Source of the DNA: an uncultured Chloroflexia bacterium
Lineage (GTDB): Bacteria > Chloroflexota > Anaerolineae > Anaerolineales > UBA11858
Assembly (NCBI GenBank): GCA_963712165.1
Contig: CAVQGY010000005.1
Location: 123,165 to 187,164 of the forward strand
Length of the DNA stretch: 64,000 nucleotides
Reading direction: 5' to 3'
A program made the position numbers and the translations under genes. This document shows positions 4,899 to 57,192 of this stretch, in pieces. Under the pieces are notes generated by a model. That model saw nothing but the letters and a program-made list of their open reading frames with translations. It did no database searches and had not been told where the DNA came from. Positions within the stretch are counted from its first letter, which is position 1. Every line of letters starts with the position of its first letter.

Positions 4899-5599
4899 TA
4901 TAGTCCCAGATTTCCCCCTTCGCCATCCGAATCAAATGTTTCAATGATCTTAAACCCGCTCTCCTCCGCCAGCTGGAGGAGTTCTTCGCTGTCATAGAGA
5001 TGCACATATCGAGTTCCACTCCCACCTCTCTGCCAATCCAGAAGGTAATCGCCCTTATCCACCTGATCATCCCGGATGCCGACAGTATGCCAGGGGAGGA
5101 TCTTTTTTCTCAAGCGTTCACTCTTGATGAACTGCCAGACGGAGAGGTAGAGAATGCCATCATCAGCCAGGGCACTCCTGATGTTCTGACATAACCTGGT
5201 CCGGATCTCGAGGCTGGGGATATGGTGAAGGGTCGCAAAGCAGCAGATCACATCATAGGAGGCCAGAGGTAGGAGATCAGCCCAGCTGGGAGCTGTCAGA
5301 TCGAGCTCCAGAAACCCTGCCTGGATCCCTTCAGGTTTATCGCCGTCAGCCCATTCAAGCAATCCCAGACTGAAATCCGCTCCCAGGTAACTACCTTTAA
5401 ATCCGTTCTCAGCTAGCTGTAAAAGGACCTTGCCGTTCCCACAGCCCAGGTCCAGCAGCGAGCTTTCGGGTGGGATCCGTTCCAGGATCTTAAGCACACC
5501 CATCTGCAGCCTGCCGCGGGTCTCAGAGAAATCCGTGGCGAAGCTTTGGTAAAATTGGTGATTGAGGTTAATGATCTTTTGGGCGACTTCTGGCTGCAT
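4877..5599 (-). CDS. class I SAM-dependent methyltransferase, Trm9/ALKBH8-methyltransferase-like
   Basis: FSETR followed by LLDLGCGNGK (SAM motif I), then LHHIP...R, LYLSVW, DYLLDW and RYVHLYDSEEL. Start set to ATG 5599, because the track start at 5680 would overlap the divergent Elp3 gene. Confidence 0.8.
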   Translation of the reverse strand: MQPEVAQKIINLNHQFYQSFATDFSETRGRLQMGVLKILERIPPESSLLDLGCGNGKVLLQLAENGFKGSYLGADFSLGLLEWADGDKPEGIQAGFLELDLTAPSWADLLPLASYDVICCFATLHHIPSLEIRTRLCQNIRSALADDGILYLSVWQFIKSERLRKKILPWHTVGIRDDQVDKGDYLLDWQRGGSGTRYVHLYDSEELLQLAEESGFKIIETFDSDGEGGNLGLYQVWEAS

Positions 5600-5648
5600 G
5601 CTTCTATTATACGCCAGGGCAAAGATCTTTTCCTCTGAGGGATTGATT

Positions 5649-7256
5649 ATGACTGAAAACAGGAGCGGGAGTAAATCCAATCAGGACCAGTTCTTGGAAG
5701 CAGAGATCAAGCTGGCATCCTTGACATTGGATGAGATCGAATCTGGCGTGGAGGTTTTTAAAGCTATCAGGCGTCATCCCCTGCCAGGAGGAGTTGGGTT
5801 CCTCAGCAAACATACTCTGGTGACAGTCTATCGGGACCAGGTTGCGAGAGGACAACGCGTCGAAGACCAAACCCTGTTGAGTAAGATCCGCTTGAAGCCA
5901 ACCCGAACATTGTCTGGAGTGACCACGGTCACCGTACTCACCAAGCCTTTTCCCTGTCCGGGAGAATGTATATTCTGTCCTGATTATGAGGAAATGCCAG
6001 TCAGCTATCTGCCTGATGAGCCGGGTGCCATGCGGGCCTTATTCCACGCCTATGACCCTTATACTCAGGTTGTCTCGCGGATTGAGGCCCTGCATGAGAT
6101 TGGCCACTCGACTGAAAAGATCGAATTACTCGTCCTGGGAGGGTCTTGGACTGCTTATGACCGGGAGTACCAGACCTGGTTCATCAAACGCTGTTTTGAT
6201 GCCATGAACGGCCAGGAGTCCTCTTCTCTGGCTGAAGCGCAGGCTTTGAATGAGACTGCTACTCATAAGAACGTAGGTCTGGTCCTGGAAACCCGGCCGG
6301 ATTTGATCACACCTGGTGAGCTTGCCAGGATGAGAATATTGGGGGTAACCAAGGTTCAGATGGGAGTGCAGAGTCTGGACGACCATATCCTAAGCCTCAA
6401 CCGACGTGGGCATACTGTAAAGCAGGCCCAAGATGGTGTGGGCCTGCTGCGGGCAGGCGGGTTTAAGATCGTGCTTCACTGGATGCCCAACTTATTGGGT
6501 GCCACACAAGAGTCTGACAGGGAGGATTTCAAACGTCTCTGGGAGGATCTTTCACCGGATGAGATCAAGATCTACCCGACTCAGCTCCTTGCGGATACTG
6601 GCCTGTATCAGATCTGGAAGCGAGGTGAGTATCACCCTTATACAACCGAGGATCTGATCCAGCTCATCGCGGATATCAAATTAGGAATCCCCCGCTACTG
6701 CCGGGTGAACCGGGTCATCCGTGATATCCCTTCCGGAAATGTGGTAGAGGGAAATAAAAGGACCAGCCTCCGGCAGGACGTTCAGTTGGAACTGTCGCGG
6801 CGAGGGAAAGCCTGTAATTGCATCCGCTGCCGGGAAGTAAAGGGACAGGAAATCGAAGTGGAGAGTTTAAGCTTCAATGACCTGGAATATACCAGTAATG
6901 GCTGCAGGGAGCATTTCTTATCCTTTGATACTCCGGATGACCACCTGGCTGGATTTGCCCGTCTGAGTTTGCCCGGGCCGGGAGCAGCGGATCCGGGTAT
7001 CGAAGAACTCAGAGGAGCGGCCTTGATCAGGGAAGTTCATGTCTATGGGGAATCCCTGCCAGTGGGTTCGGAGAAGGATGGTGCAACCCAACATTCAGGT
7101 CTGGGGACTGCTCTGCTTGAGGACGCTGAAGGCATCGCCTTTGAGAATGGTTATCAGAAGATAGCTGTGATCTCTGCGGTAGGAACCCGCGGTTATTACC
7201 TGGAGCGAGGCTACGAGCGGGGGGAGTTATATTTAATTAAGGAGCTTGGCGTGTAG
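5649..7256 (+). CDS. elp3: Elp3-type radical SAM / GNAT tRNA uridine(34) modification enzyme
   Basis: Radical-SAM CPGECIFC (Cx3Cx2C) within TVLTKPFPCPGECIFCPD. C-terminal GNAT QHSGLGTALLEDAEGIAFENGYQKIAVISAVGTRGYYLERGY. Start set to ATG 5649. Confidence 0.88.
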   Translation: MTENRSGSKSNQDQFLEAEIKLASLTLDEIESGVEVFKAIRRHPLPGGVGFLSKHTLVTVYRDQVARGQRVEDQTLLSKIRLKPTRTLSGVTTVTVLTKPFPCPGECIFCPDYEEMPVSYLPDEPGAMRALFHAYDPYTQVVSRIEALHEIGHSTEKIELLVLGGSWTAYDREYQTWFIKRCFDAMNGQESSSLAEAQALNETATHKNVGLVLETRPDLITPGELARMRILGVTKVQMGVQSLDDHILSLNRRGHTVKQAQDGVGLLRAGGFKIVLHWMPNLLGATQESDREDFKRLWEDLSPDEIKIYPTQLLADTGLYQIWKRGEYHPYTTEDLIQLIADIKLGIPRYCRVNRVIRDIPSGNVVEGNKRTSLRQDVQLELSRRGKACNCIRCREVKGQEIEVESLSFNDLEYTSNGCREHFLSFDTPDDHLAGFARLSLPGPGAADPGIEELRGAALIREVHVYGESLPVGSEKDGATQHSGLGTALLEDAEGIAFENGYQKIAVISAVGTRGYYLERGYERGELYLIKELGV

Positions 7257-7268
7257 GTGGAATTGAGG

Positions 7269-7600
7269 ATTGTCTTCTATTTTCGCCCAACGATTAAAAT
7301 CGTGGGCTGAACCAAAAAAGACCCCCTGCGGGGACTTCATTAAAATCACTAAAGAGGACTGTCGGGAACCCAGCGCCGAACCGCCGCAGGGTGGATTGCC
7401 CCGTCAGCCCACGGGTTCAGCCGTCGGGTAGTCAAAAGATTGTCTTCTATTTGTGCCCAACGAATAAATTCGTGGGCTGAACCAAAAAAGTCCCTCTGCA
7501 GGGACTTCACAAAAATCACTCAAGATAAGCGTTGGAAATCCAGCGCCTAACCGCCGGAGGGCGGTTTGCCACGTCAGCCCACGGGTTCAGCCGTCGGGCA
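7269..7600 (+). repeat. two tandem copies (period exactly 170 bp) of a hairpin-rich structured element; possible ncRNA or REP-like element
   Basis: 7269-7430 aligns with 7439-7600 without indels: 23 mismatches in 162 positions by hand count. Each copy has four hairpins. Two mismatch pairs are compensatory (7294/7299 T-A vs A-T; 7325/7330 C-G vs T-A). Strand uncertain. Confidence 0.8.
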
Positions 7601-7641
7601 ATGGATAACGATTCAAATTTTCTATATTCAATTTTCAATCG

Positions 7642-8628
7642 TTAATATTCAATTTCACTGATCGGATTGAGTTTAGTGAAATTGTGTTTTCCGTTGATCC
7701 AGCGTACCGTGCCGGTTTCTCCCCGGATCACCAGGCTGGATGTCTCCGCTCCCCTGCCGGTATAGCGCACACCAGAAAGTAGCTCACCATCCGTGATTCC
7801 AGTTGCAGCAAAAAACACATCATCGGAAGAGACTAAATCGTCCATGGTGATCACCCGGTCCAGGTTATATCCCATTTCCAGTCCAAGTCTCTTTTCTTCC
7901 TCATTCCTGATATAAAGTTTTCCCTGAATTTCACCCCCCATTGCCCGGATGGCACAGGCTGCCAGCACTCCCTCCGGTGTGCCGCCAATGCCCAGCAGGG
8001 CATCGATACCTGACTCTGGCAGACATGTCATCAAGGCCGCCGCCACATCACCATCGGGGATCAGGCGGATCCGGGCTCCAATTTCCCGGACGCGGTTGAT
8101 CAAATCATCATGCCTGGGGCGTTGGAGAATGATCACTGTTACGTCTTTGAGAGACTTTCCTTCTGATTCCGCGATGATCCTGAGATTATCTTCCAGTGGG
8201 GCTTCGATATTGATCTTCCCCGCTGCTAGGGGTCCGACCGCGATCTTGTCCATATAAACGAATGGGCCTGGATTGAACATCGTATCTCGCGGGGCAACGG
8301 CCACAGTGGCGATGGAGTTCAGGAAGCCGTTTGCCAGAGGCCGGGTTCCATCGATGGGATCCACTGCCAGGTCAACTTTGGGGGCTTTGCCTGTACCGAC
8401 AACCTCGCCATTAAATAACATGGGCGCTTCGTCTTTTTCCCCTTCTCCGATCACCACCACGGCATCCATATCGATTGAGTTCAACACCAGGCGCATGGCA
8501 TCCACTGCTGCTTTATCTGCGACCTCTTTCTGGCCCCGGCCCATAAAACGGCCTGCAGAAAGCGCAGCTGCCTCTGTAACTCGAACTAACTCCAGGGCCA
8601 GGTTGCGTGATGGTTTTTGTGAATTCAT
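7642..8628 (-). CDS. glpX: class II fructose-1,6-bisphosphatase
   Basis: LELVRVTEAAALSAGRFMGRG, VVIGEGEKDEAPML, AVDPIDGT; typical length of 328 aa. Confidence 0.9.
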   Translation of the reverse strand: MNSQKPSRNLALELVRVTEAAALSAGRFMGRGQKEVADKAAVDAMRLVLNSIDMDAVVVIGEGEKDEAPMLFNGEVVGTGKAPKVDLAVDPIDGTRPLANGFLNSIATVAVAPRDTMFNPGPFVYMDKIAVGPLAAGKINIEAPLEDNLRIIAESEGKSLKDVTVIILQRPRHDDLINRVREIGARIRLIPDGDVAAALMTCLPESGIDALLGIGGTPEGVLAACAIRAMGGEIQGKLYIRNEEEKRLGLEMGYNLDRVITMDDLVSSDDVFFAATGITDGELLSGVRYTGRGAETSSLVIRGETGTVRWINGKHNFTKLNPISEIEY

Positions 8629-13977: not shown

Positions 13978-13995
13978 TTGGTTGCTAATTGAATA

Positions 13996-14121
13996 AACAC
14001 CTTCGGGGCAGGGTGAGCGAAAGCAATTCCCAATCGGCGGTACAGCCCGCGAGCGCCTTAATTGGCGTAGGATCCGGTGAAACTCCGGGGCCGACGGTAT
14101 AGTCCGGATAGGAGAAGGTTA
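13996..14121 (+). promoter_or_regulatory. FMN riboswitch (RFN element) aptamer
   Basis: CTTCGGGGCAGGGTG...ATTCCCAATCGGCGGTA.AGCCCGCGAGC...GGATCCGGTGAAACTCCGGGGCCGACGGTATAGTCCGGATAGGAGAAGG matches the RFN core. P1 pairs CCTTC with GAAGG. Confidence 0.9.
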
Positions 14122-14157
14122 GAGAGGTTCAGCTGAACCTGGCTGATATTCTGAATG

Positions 14158-46527: not shown

Positions 46528-48234
46528 ATGGAACTGATTAAGAAATTGCGCTGGCAAATATTGATTATTGTCCTGGCATTAGTGGTGATCGCTTTTGTCC
46601 TCTGGGGACAACAAGCTGAGCCAGTACTCGTGGAAAATCCTGAGCCAACCAGTGGTGGATTGTATACAGAGGGTATTATCGGTTCCCTGATGCGCCTGAA
46701 TCCGCTCCTGGCAGAATTCAATCCTCCCGATCAGGACCCGGTTAGCCTGCTTTTCAGGGGGTTGATCCGTTTCGACAGTACCGGTTTACCGCAGCCCGAC
46801 CTCTCCAGTGCCTGGGGGATCTCACAAGATGGCGCAGTATATAACTTCTCCCTGCGGCCGGATATTTTCTGGCATGACGGGGAGCCGGTAACTAGTGAGG
46901 ATGTGATCTTTACAGTCAGCCTGCTTCAGGACCCGGAGTTCCCGGTTCCTGAAGATCTGGCAGCGTTCTGGCAGGAGGTTGAGGCGGTCATCCTGGATGA
47001 AAGGAATTTCCAGTTCAGACTCCCGGAAGCTTATTCCCCATTCTTGGCTTATCTTGATTTTGGGATATTGCCAGCCCATTTATTGGGTGACTTGACGGTC
47101 CCAGAAATCGTTGATGCGCCCTATAACCTGCAGCCAGTAGGCACAGGTCCTTATCAGTTTGACCAGTTGATCATAGAAGATGGTCAAATCGCGGGAGTTA
47201 TCCTCAAGGTGAATCCAGAATTCTACAGAGAACAAGCTTTTCTGGATCAGGTGGCCTTTATATATTACCCAGATTCCCAGGCGATATGGGAGGCCTATCA
47301 GAATGGGGAGATCCAGGGCATTGGGGAGATCAGGGATGAGATCCTTTTTGACGCGCTAGCGGACGAGGATCTAAGTTTATACACCAGCCGGTTGCCTGAA
47401 TTGACTTTGGTACTGCTCAATCTGGATAACCCGGAGCTTCCCTTTTTGAACGAAGTGGACCTGAGGAAGGCTCTCCTGTATGGTATTAACCGTCAATATC
47501 TCGTGGATCAGATCAATCAGGGGCAAGCCATCATTGCAGATGGCCCTGTTTTCCCAAATACCTGGGCATTTTACGATAATATCCCCCGTTACGAATTTGA
47601 CACCGAACTCGCGATTGAGATCATCAAAGACCTTGGGTATACCTTTCCAAGCGAAGATGTGCTCGCGCGAGAGAATGAAGAGGGGGACCGCCTGGAGATG
47701 GAACTGATCTACCCGGAAACTGGTATACACACCCAGATCGCTCAGGCCATTCAGGAAAACTGGACAGTCCTGGGATTCAATATCACCCTACAACCGCTTT
47801 CTTACCAGGAGTTGTTGGATAAACTGGATGAGCGGGATTATGCGGCGGCCTTGGTCGATCTGAATCTCACTGGTATGCCTGATCCTGATCCGTACCCATT
47901 CTGGCACCAAACCCAGAAGACGAACGGGCAGAATTACTCCAATTGGAACGATCGCCGGGCGAGTGAGTACCTGGAACAAGCAAGATTGGTTCTTGATATT
48001 GGGGAACGGGCCAAGCTTTACAAGAATTTCCAGGTGAGATTTCATGATCAGCTGCCGGCTCTTCCTCTATATTATCAAGTTTATAACTACGGGGTTGCTT
48101 CAGACGTAAAGGGTGTCCGCATTGGCCCAATTTATAATCCCTCCGATCGCCTAAATACCATCATTGATTGGTATTTGTTCGTGGAAGTGCCTGGCGGTTT
48201 GGAACCGACCGATGATAAACCAGCGGGAGACTAA
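46528..48234 (+). CDS. ABC transporter substrate-binding protein, family 5 (peptide/nickel type)
   Basis: N-terminal anchor. ...FWHDGEPVTSEDVIFT..., ...PVGTGPYQF... Typical size for a family-5 SBP. No permease or ATPase genes adjacent. Confidence 0.8.
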   Translation: MELIKKLRWQILIIVLALVVIAFVLWGQQAEPVLVENPEPTSGGLYTEGIIGSLMRLNPLLAEFNPPDQDPVSLLFRGLIRFDSTGLPQPDLSSAWGISQDGAVYNFSLRPDIFWHDGEPVTSEDVIFTVSLLQDPEFPVPEDLAAFWQEVEAVILDERNFQFRLPEAYSPFLAYLDFGILPAHLLGDLTVPEIVDAPYNLQPVGTGPYQFDQLIIEDGQIAGVILKVNPEFYREQAFLDQVAFIYYPDSQAIWEAYQNGEIQGIGEIRDEILFDALADEDLSLYTSRLPELTLVLLNLDNPELPFLNEVDLRKALLYGINRQYLVDQINQGQAIIADGPVFPNTWAFYDNIPRYEFDTELAIEIIKDLGYTFPSEDVLARENEEGDRLEMELIYPETGIHTQIAQAIQENWTVLGFNITLQPLSYQELLDKLDERDYAAALVDLNLTGMPDPDPYPFWHQTQKTNGQNYSNWNDRRASEYLEQARLVLDIGERAKLYKNFQVRFHDQLPALPLYYQVYNYGVASDVKGVRIGPIYNPSDRLNTIIDWYLFVEVPGGLEPTDDKPAGD

Positions 48235-57119: not shown

Positions 57120-57192
57120 TCGGGGTGGACGGACTTGAACCGTCGACCTCCGCGTCCCAAACGCGGCGCGCTACCAACTGCGCCACACCCCG
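57120..57192 (-). tRNA. tRNA-Pro (anticodon UGG), no encoded CCA
   Basis: The minus strand folds as a cloverleaf: acceptor CGGGGTG/CACCCCG, D stem GCGC/GCGC, anticodon stem CCGCG/CGCGG with loop TTTGGGA, T arm GACGG-TTCAAGT-CCGTC. Confidence 0.92.

Follow-up and report, generated by a model that had tools for sequence, protein, structure and literature searches.

The array between elp3 and glpX

What is the structured repeat that separates two convergent genes in an uncultured Chloroflexia bacterium, and why is it there? The gap between elp3 and glpX in this genome (GTDB lineage Anaerolineales, UBA11858; assembly GCA_963712165.1) holds two head-to-tail units of 170 bp, each of which can form four hairpins (H1 to H4). 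We analysed the locus within a window of 64,000 nt (contig CAVQGY010000005.1, positions 123,165 to 187,164 of the forward strand); coordinates given below without a contig handle are window positions. A first-pass annotation of the window had left three options for the pair: a non-coding RNA (ncRNA), an element of a 3' untranslated region (3'-UTR), or a DNA element resembling the repetitive extragenic palindromic (REP) sequences. We find that each unit is likely a non-autonomous, transposase-less derivative of a small Y1 (HUH, IS200-like) transposon cassette, comparable to a miniature inverted-repeat transposable element (MITE) or a REPIN, and that the pair is likely a short array of the kind known as bacterial interspersed mosaic elements (BIME). 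A covarying dispersed family, its extragenic location, its presence or absence at the orthologous site, a gene-bearing cassette and a gene-less derivative support this reading together.

The pair occupies positions 7269-7608. Tandem Repeats Finder (TRF) delimits it at 7268-7598, with a period of 170, 1.9 copies, 86% matches and no indels. Our re-count reproduced the 23 mismatches in 162 positions reported before and gave 28 in 170 over the full unit. The + strand of both units corresponds to the transposase sense strand of intact units in relatives.

7269..7438, + strand: unit 1 of the pair, a tnpA-less four-hairpin cassette of 170 bp; covariance model R1 scores 165 bits at 7280-7432
7439..7608, + strand: unit 2 of the pair; covariance model R1 scores 174 bits at 7450-7602; also delimited by TRF

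The first-pass annotation had located all four hairpins correctly. They are arranged as follows:

7285..7311, + strand: H1 of unit 1, left end module (stem-loop 7285-7307), GCCC(A)ACGAT-TAAA-ATCGTGGGC, then the tag TGA(A); A7289 is bulged
7318..7337, + strand: H2 of unit 1 (core 7320-7335), AAGACCCCC-TGC-GGGGACTT, of the AAGTCCC...GGGACTT type that stands directly upstream of tnpA in intact units
7379..7397, + strand: H3 of unit 1 (stem-loop 7379-7396), AACCGCC-GCAG-GGTGGATT, of the AAACCGCC...GGCGGTTT type that follows the tnpA stop codon in intact units
7403..7429, + strand: H4 of unit 1, right end module, inverted (stem-loop 7408-7428), (G)TCA-GCCCACGG-GTTCAG-CCGT(C)GGGT; C7425 is bulged
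7455..7481, + strand: H1 of unit 2, GCCCAACGAA-TAAA-TTCGTGGGC followed by TGAA
7488..7507, + strand: H2 of unit 2, AAGTCCCT-CTGC-AGGGACTT
7549..7567, + strand: H3 of unit 2, AACCGCC-GGAG-GGCGGTT, Watson-Crick throughout
7573..7599, + strand: H4 of unit 2, right end module, inverted; placed by sequence, paired-module and covariation analysis

H1 of unit 1 is a bulged variant of a 24-nt REP-like hairpin, CCCNYRG-NTNAAN-CYRNGGG-CTGA; the end module of the window subtype is the variant GCCC(A)ACGA...TCGTGGGC-TGA, with one bulged base in the same place at both ends. The hairpins of unit 2 are nearer the family consensus than those of unit 1, in which H3 is degraded, combining the G7383-T7392 wobble with an A7380/A7395 mismatch that had escaped the earlier reading. 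Both compensatory changes proposed there are present: T7294-A7299 of copy 1 becomes A7464-T7469 in copy 2, and C7325-G7330 becomes T7495-A7500. A long-range pairing had been suggested as well. GGCTGAACC (7305-7313) is indeed complementary to GGTTCAGCC (7414-7422), joining the 3' arm of H1 plus the CTGAAC tag to the loop region of H4, but we read this as a by-product of motifs shared between the modules, and covariation does not separate the pairing from the local hairpins.

A 53-aa open reading frame (ORF) at 7270-7431 was rejected as protein-coding because the 170-bp period is no multiple of three and the family varies by indels. One metagenome contig runs from copy 2 through the spacer into copy 1 again, which is compatible with an array of at least three units in some members of the population or with a cycle in the assembly.

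The end hairpins are inverted copies of one module

H1 and H4 are inverted copies of a single 24-nt hairpin, in which a GC-rich stem of 7 bp closes an NTNAAN loop and CTGA serves as the tag. Every family member follows the same plan: a left hairpin with CTGA, one or two internal hairpins, and TCAG with a right hairpin. The module was examined across the genome studied (G000, a 2.98-Mb assembly that is 96.6% complete; G, C and L numbers are our handles for genomes, contigs and loci) by a test that starts from the motif GGGCTGA, presumes no pairing and allows loops of 3 to 11 nt. Among 643 such sites, 14 were directly preceded by a perfect 7-bp hairpin, against none in the reversed-genome control. 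These 14 hairpins have six different stems, yet all have a 6-nt loop and no other length, and 13 of the loops match NTNAAN when read in the orientation of the tag, so that an element has true inverted repeats at its ends. Eighteen elements are bordered by inverted modules. Loose regular-expression patterns for the hairpins proved too noisy (306 matches against 182 in the control), and we relied instead on the strict GGGCTGA test, the covariance model and paired modules.

Pairing is maintained while the sequence changes. In an alignment of 18 sequences from eleven species of the genus, 91% of cells are paired in H1, 98% in H3 and 90% in H4, and pairs have changed on both sides at 5 of 9, 4 of 7 and 4 of 8 positions, respectively. 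The observed covariation score was reached by none of 500 shuffles, and slid controls dropped to 30-47% paired. The claim of the first-pass annotation that the structure is under selection, and that the pair is no neutral one-off duplication, is borne out by this result. H2 is misaligned in the same alignment, its stem varying in length; folded singly, it is a clean hairpin in 17 of the 18 sequences, one whose AAGTCCC/GGGACTT base is conserved and whose apical pairs vary. RNAalifold returned an alternative fold in which the outer GCCC/GGGC of H1 and H4 pair across the unit. This fold and the local hairpins score alike on the genus alignment (85.6% and 85.1% of cells paired, respectively) because the outer GCCC/GGGC bases hardly vary; the local hairpins are preferred because the same modules occur alone too.

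In some end modules the 6-nt loop is interrupted, always at the same point, by a nested GC-rich hairpin of about 30 nt, as in CCCACGG-TT[GGCCCCTCGCTATGGCTCGGGGTGCTTCGC]AAAA-CCGTGAG. Such modules are found in G000 at C2:5151-5204, 174276-174329 and 177794-177847 and at C5:14916-14968 and 46775-46828, and in relatives at L033, L042, L044 and L049. Judged by its sequence, the long-loop module is a conserved alternative form and no product of damage, since the form recurs across species.

The same hairpins bracket a Y1 transposase gene in relatives

In four relatives (G019, G006, G011 and G041; loci L188, L189, L193 and L194) the hairpins enclose a transposase gene, in the order H1, H2, tnpA, H3, H4 and with inverted end hairpins. 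Upstream of the gene stand GCCCGGCGG-loop-CCGCGGGC-TA and then AAGTCCCCC-loop-GGGGGACTT; downstream of it follow AAAACCATC-loop-GATGGTTTT and then TCAGCCCGCGA-loop-TCGCCGGGC. The AAGTCCC...GGGACTT hairpin thus lies 5' of the gene and AAACC...GGTTT lies 3' of it, and the bulge of the module is positioned as in the window copies. By blastn, H1 of window unit 2 matches the left end of the G006 unit (L189) and H4 its right end, in unchanged order. Because these hairpins bracket tnpA in relatives, the window units correspond to the cassette without its gene.

A gene-less derivative of such a unit is found in G021, where a 192-nt element (L042) consists of both ends of the G019 gene unit without the ORF. 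Positions 39-123 of L042 match L188 1394-1477, just upstream of the gene (85 nt, 91%), and positions 125-192 match L188 1935-2002, just downstream (68 nt, 93%); the gene itself lies at 1498-1929. This correspondence holds for a sister subtype, and the window subtype matches in the end modules alone.

G000 has three Y1_Tnp genes of its own:

C2:151897-152238: T1, a Y1_Tnp gene by Pfam match
C2:153940-154284: T2, a Y1_Tnp gene by Pfam match
C2:714507-714842: third Y1_Tnp gene by Pfam match, 36% identical to T1

T1 and T2 encode proteins of 135-138 aa that are 56% identical. They score 86.7 and 89.7 bits against Pfam Y1_Tnp (PF01797) and pass the NCBIfam IS200/IS605 model NF033573 (71 and 76.7 bits, cut-off 55); the RayT model NF047646 is not passed (24.9 and 21.9 bits, cut-off 80). 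The motifs are GDHVH, RWQ and KYIINQKEHH in T1 and RDHVH, RWQ and KYIENQKEHH in T2. Both genes are bracketed by variant modules plus H2- and H3-like hairpins, the stems of which differ from the window subtype. A gene cognate to the window subtype was found in neither G000 nor G001, where the distant Y1 genes have a different hairpin set. The exact module pattern has 15 matches in G000 and 0-1 in other genomes of the genus, and T1-like genes occur in 25 of 37 genomes; this co-occurrence within the genus is uninformative because each Y1 clade has its own stem variant.

The third Y1 gene (C2:714300-715100) has different hairpins on both flanks, ATCCACCA-TCCAAAG-TGGTGGAT plus GTCCGAACGTCGGCAGTAGCCGACGTT. 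In its relatives (L195-L198, in G001, G017, G003 and G007) the flanking sequences are AAACGTCCCCACAGGGGGACGTT and GGACTTCAGTCC, which in G001 and G003 stand on either side of the gene. This looks like a second, separate Y1-hairpin partnership in the genus. A 197-aa ORF of G000 at C2:~1011200-1012100 (- strand) has a weak Y1_Tnp match and scores 71.3 bits with RayT NF047646, just below the cut-off of 80; from its sequence, this ORF at C2:~1011 kb may be a true RAYT-like gene.

A dispersed, extragenic family and the elp3-glpX junction

The four-hairpin unit occurs at about 20 intergenic loci in G000, in roughly 28 copies, and is present in other species of the genus. Copies of the window subtype, which the first-pass annotation had left to a BLASTN count, number 11 full or near-full ones plus one 3' half, at five loci of the assembly. 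A covariance model built from ten copies added about 15 further diverged members in G000 and, among 24 other species of the genus, detected members in 9; with the same model, none was found in 16 other families of the order. Larger arrays in G000 are a triple at C5:74989-75482 and a quadruple at C2:92683-93437. None of the 20 loci lies within an ORF of at least 110 aa, though such ORFs cover 89% of the genome, and 7 of the 20 fall into convergent gaps, which account for 13.5% of all gaps.

The genes on either side of the window array had been named correctly, and domain matches agree:

5562..7256, + strand: Elp3-like radical-SAM gene with radical-SAM and Radical_SAM_C domains; its stop codon is 12 nt ahead of the array
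7642..8628, - strand: glpX, fructose-1,6-bisphosphatase class II (FBPase_glpX, E 5e-136), convergent; its stop codon is 33 nt from the array

The gap between them measures 385 nt in G000 and 14-80 nt in G001, G024, G003, G017, G007 and G010, and one degenerate family copy sits at the same junction in G002. Since the unit is absent at the orthologous junction of the closest relatives, the array is no conserved part of elp3 or glpX. At the G005 junction (L066, G005:C8:208500-208990) there is an unrelated MITE-like insert of about 275 bp with a long inverted repeat, GTCATCCTGACCC...GGGTCAGAATGAC; small mobile elements seem prone to land at this junction.

At 7616-7655, overlapping the glpX stop codon, lies a tandem repeat of 7 nt (AATTTTC x5.7); the corresponding place in relatives is similarly TTCAAT-rich. 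Coverage by metagenome and metatranscriptome contigs peaks at 7592-7679 with a summed depth of 54-125, against 2-5 elsewhere, so this short stretch is common to many other organisms.

The units are clustered: C5 (316 kb) has about 13, and about 11 stand within the initial 180 kb of C2, the region of T1 and T2 (152-154 kb). C2 has two others at 536 kb and one at 1122 kb; C3 and C4 bear solo modules only, and C1 (630 kb) has none. The clustering could result from local hopping, or C5 and the start of C2 could be adjacent in the chromosome. Arrangement in head-to-tail arrays characterises the family; in relatives and other phyla the period is 139-382 bp. Further examples are L033/L041 (G019:C39) and L050/L056 (G019:C16), and L158, L149 and L129 in other phyla; downstream of the gene-bearing unit of G019 (L188, G019:C97), the upstream spacer and left end of that unit occur once more.

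A possible route to the array

How would such a unit have come to lie between elp3 and glpX? H1 and H4 would fold in single-stranded DNA and be bound and cut as recognition sites of a Y1 enzyme, a step that we infer from IS200/IS605 TnpA and E. coli TnpA-REP (PMC6006769, PMC3479197). By analogy, a Y1 enzyme may have moved or copied a unit into the gap between the convergent genes, and the second copy would have arisen by re-insertion beside the first or by unequal recombination. On either side of tnpA in the intact unit, H2 and H3 may act as insulating or terminating hairpins, and they would be carried along in gene-less copies. The A6 run unique to the window copies turns H2 into a - strand stem plus T6, which may have a secondary use for the host.

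Several points weigh against this derivation from a transposon. The L188-type Y1 clade, whose ends match the window subtype best, is absent from the 96.6%-complete G000 assembly, and the copies there differ by 14-22% and show nothing that would indicate recent movement; in this genome the window subtype therefore seems to be an orphan, its copies being probably either orphaned fossils or cross-mobilised by the two related Y1 genes. IS200/IS605 elements insert 3' of a fixed tetra- or pentanucleotide and leave no target duplication; in the comparison of filled and empty sites here the flanks, at ~80% identity, are too diverged to fix ends, target and target-site duplications, and a 25-nt spacer common to two arrays could also mean that a larger block was duplicated. 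The end hairpins are inverted, whereas in canonical IS200/IS605 elements both ends face the same way on one strand; the mechanism known from those elements may thus not apply here as it stands. The stem sequences of H2 and H3 are kept across species, which could reflect a function at the RNA level or as terminators and would suit a structured RNA. Transposition, excision and DNA binding are, for members of this family, presumed from the better-studied enzymes.

Host functions as alternatives

It is possible, though unlikely, that the array is kept mainly as a host terminator or mRNA-stabiliser block between the convergent genes, its transposon origin being mere history. Such a role has been proposed for the REP and BIME sequences of E. 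coli. A terminator scan found two - strand sites downstream of glpX, with stems at 7508-7487 and 7335-7321. In unit 2, H2 on the - strand has a 9-bp stem and then TTTTTTGG, terminator-like and ~135 nt beyond the glpX stop codon; in unit 1, H2 on the - strand plus T6 (complement of 7314-7319) is likewise intrinsic-terminator-like. The A6/T6 run is found only in the two window copies, the other subtype copies having CCTTTCAAG there, H2 and H3 of other subtypes show the AAA-stem-TTT form of bidirectional terminators, and the enrichment in convergent gaps points in the same direction. Two sites, however, compare with 1.2 +/- 0.9 in shuffles, so that the count is weak alone, and there is no canonical + strand terminator for elp3. 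Close relatives have a gap of 14-80 nt without the element, and 13 of the 20 loci lie outside convergent gaps. In sequence, H2 with the T6 run on the - strand suggests two intrinsic-terminator-like sites for glpX, a possible secondary host use of an array that we take to be transposon-derived.

Improbable, in our judgement, is a structured RNA gene or cis-element (an ncRNA or an elp3/glpX 3'-UTR) whose hairpins are kept for RNA folding, the tandem then representing two RNAs or a double element. The strong covariation in H1, H3 and H4 would be expected of such an RNA, and both strands fold better than shuffles (z -2.3 for + and -3.5 for -). Low-depth estuary metatranscriptome contigs cover a related copy (C5:281061 type), but their depth of 2.6-3.7 equals that of neighbouring genes and the contigs are direction-less; the array itself turned up in no RNA run. 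Like the Rfam motifs Chloroflexi-1, Acido-Lenti-1 and similar ones, the units are multi-hairpin, GC-rich, intergenic and often tandem, and those motifs are of unknown function. The first-pass annotation had thought of membership in Chloroflexi motifs of this kind; our Rfam searches, which covered the window array, other subtypes, the gene units and two loci from other phyla, gave no covariance-model match to any of 4227 models (Rfam 15), even at E up to 10, the best matches (sR10, RybB, istR and mir-70) being at chance level. The only gathering-level Rfam hits in the window are an FMN riboswitch at 13995-14123 (+ strand, 94.6 bits) and a tRNA at 57120-57192 (- strand).

Other evidence also speaks against an RNA. 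The first-pass annotation had noted that the G-T pair in H3 would be a G-U wobble only with the + strand as the RNA; across the family, G-T (14) and A-C (10) are about equally frequent, and therefore neither strand is favoured as RNA. Hairpins, loops and tags are mirrored, which a single RNA strand would not need; because the mirroring includes the asymmetric loop and the one-sided tag, it argues for an element of DNA whose hairpin is read from either strand. The scan of the array and its surroundings showed no promoter-like site. The same hairpins flank a transposase gene in relatives, the closest of them lack the element at the orthologous junction, and members adjoin unrelated genes in all orientations. 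Of the three options offered at first, the REP-like DNA element fits, and the ncRNA and the 3'-UTR element, given the lack of an Rfam match, the mirrored ends and the absence of wobble bias, are not supported.

A mere local tandem duplication of an ordinary intergenic stretch, with coincidental terminator hairpins and no wider family, would account for just two copies at the site with an exact period and no indels, but is refuted beyond reasonable doubt by the recurrence of the unit at ~20 loci and in other species, by pairs that covary across species and by a cassette that elsewhere encloses a transposase gene.

Relation to REPtrons and IS200/IS605 elements

A transposase-less Y1 cassette invites comparison with the REP/BIME/REPIN-RAYT systems ('REPtrons') of Proteobacteria (Nunvar 2010; Bertels and Rainey 2011, PMC3116915; Ton-Hoang 2012; Quentin 2018, PMC6006769). 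The likeness extends to a short, GC-rich palindrome that folds into a hairpin and has a conserved tetranucleotide tag at the base, to copies that are strictly extragenic and enriched at gene 3' ends, and to inverted hairpin doublets that are themselves arrayed head-to-tail (two, three and four units in G000, more in relatives). A Y1/HUH gene lies between the same hairpins in inverted orientation, and different Y1 clades have different cognate hairpins. The tag, however, is CTGA here (TCAG on the other strand) and GTAG or CGTC in REPtrons; the text of a survey of GTAG- and CGTC-tagged repeats (PMC3733652) contains neither of the strings CTGA and TCAG. The enzyme is no class 2 TnpA-REP/RAYT, having Y---Q--HH instead of Y---NP and scoring 22-25 bits against a cut-off of 80. 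The doublet also holds two more conserved hairpins, H2 and H3, with the gene between them, and the repeat therefore equals the gene unit minus its ORF.

With IS200/IS605 elements and their MITE or 'PATE' derivatives the family shares an enzyme that scores above the cut-off of the NCBIfam IS200/IS605 equivalog (71-77 bits against 55) and also matches Pfam Y1_Tnp, a gene unit of ~0.6 kb with hairpins at both ends, and internally deleted copies that retain only the ends. Salmonella IS200 has a terminator-like hairpin upstream of tnpA, as do the gene-bearing units described here. Active IS200/IS605 elements are multi-copy and near-identical, whereas the gene copies here are single and diverged (T1 and T2 56%, the third gene 36%); tnpB is absent, and gene-less copies far outnumber genes. 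The array thus fails two classical REP-RAYT features (tag and enzyme class) and two IS200/IS605 features (end orientation and multi-copy genes).

The module in other phyla

The module pattern was scanned exactly in one genome per GTDB species, and the counts refer to the matches listed. It occurs at at least 114 loci, in Bacteroidota, Ignavibacteria, Kapaibacteria, Bryobacterales, Verrucomicrobia, Nitrospirota, Bacillota, Chloroflexota and other groups, and complementarity is perfect in 99 of the 132 matches listed (chance 1/16). Among the matches listed, 15 of the 114 8-kb loci contain a T1/T2 homologue, where we estimate a chance expectation of ~1% per 8-kb locus from three genes per 3 Mb. 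The modules typically stand 30-90 nt from the start and stop codons of the Y1 homologues, in inverted orientation, and 12 of 13 module-linked homologues of other phyla (predicted ORFs of 139-200 aa) have Y-I-x-N-Q-x-x-H-H. Within Anaerolineae, the pattern was not found in 300 other genomes from 175 other genera, as compared with its 15 matches in G000. The canonical hairpin is thus seen there in one genus only, and this patchiness suggests horizontal arrival and then local expansion.

These proteins resemble subclass 1.2 of TnpA_Y1, which is characterised by the motifs DH[IV]H, WQ and YIKNQKEHH (Y---Q--HH), a length of ~148 aa and low copy number (Quentin et al. 2018, PMC6006769). The same source lists the subclass as 'REP: no', generally without terminal IS200-type structures and mostly from Cyanobacteria and Bacteroidetes. 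T1, T2 and 12 of the 13 homologues carry DH[VI]H, WQ and Y-I-x-N-Q-x-x-H-H and are of low copy number; the assignment is by motifs only. They differ from the published subclass in being bracketed by hairpins, in having gene-less derivatives and in occurring in a Chloroflexota genus. In the literature searched, no later paper ties subclass 1.2 to repeats. The prospect is an even one that subclass 1.2 Y1/HUH proteins are the core of a REPtron-like system of their own in several phyla, built on a four-hairpin, CTGA-tagged cassette that sheds gene-less copies as solo hairpins, doublets and tandem arrays.

Implications

For the window itself, the array would be mobile-element debris with a possible terminator side-effect, and its mis-annotation as an RNA gene is avoided. 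For a transposase subclass listed without IS ends or REPs, the family offers a concrete partner repeat together with a derivation, from gene unit to gene-less copy to tandem array. If this is true, H1 and H4 would provide defined single-stranded DNA substrates for studying Y1 enzymes, and genome-structuring repeats of the REP type would extend past Proteobacteria-style RAYTs to Chloroflexota, Bacteroidota, Ignavibacteria, Acidobacteriota and other phyla.

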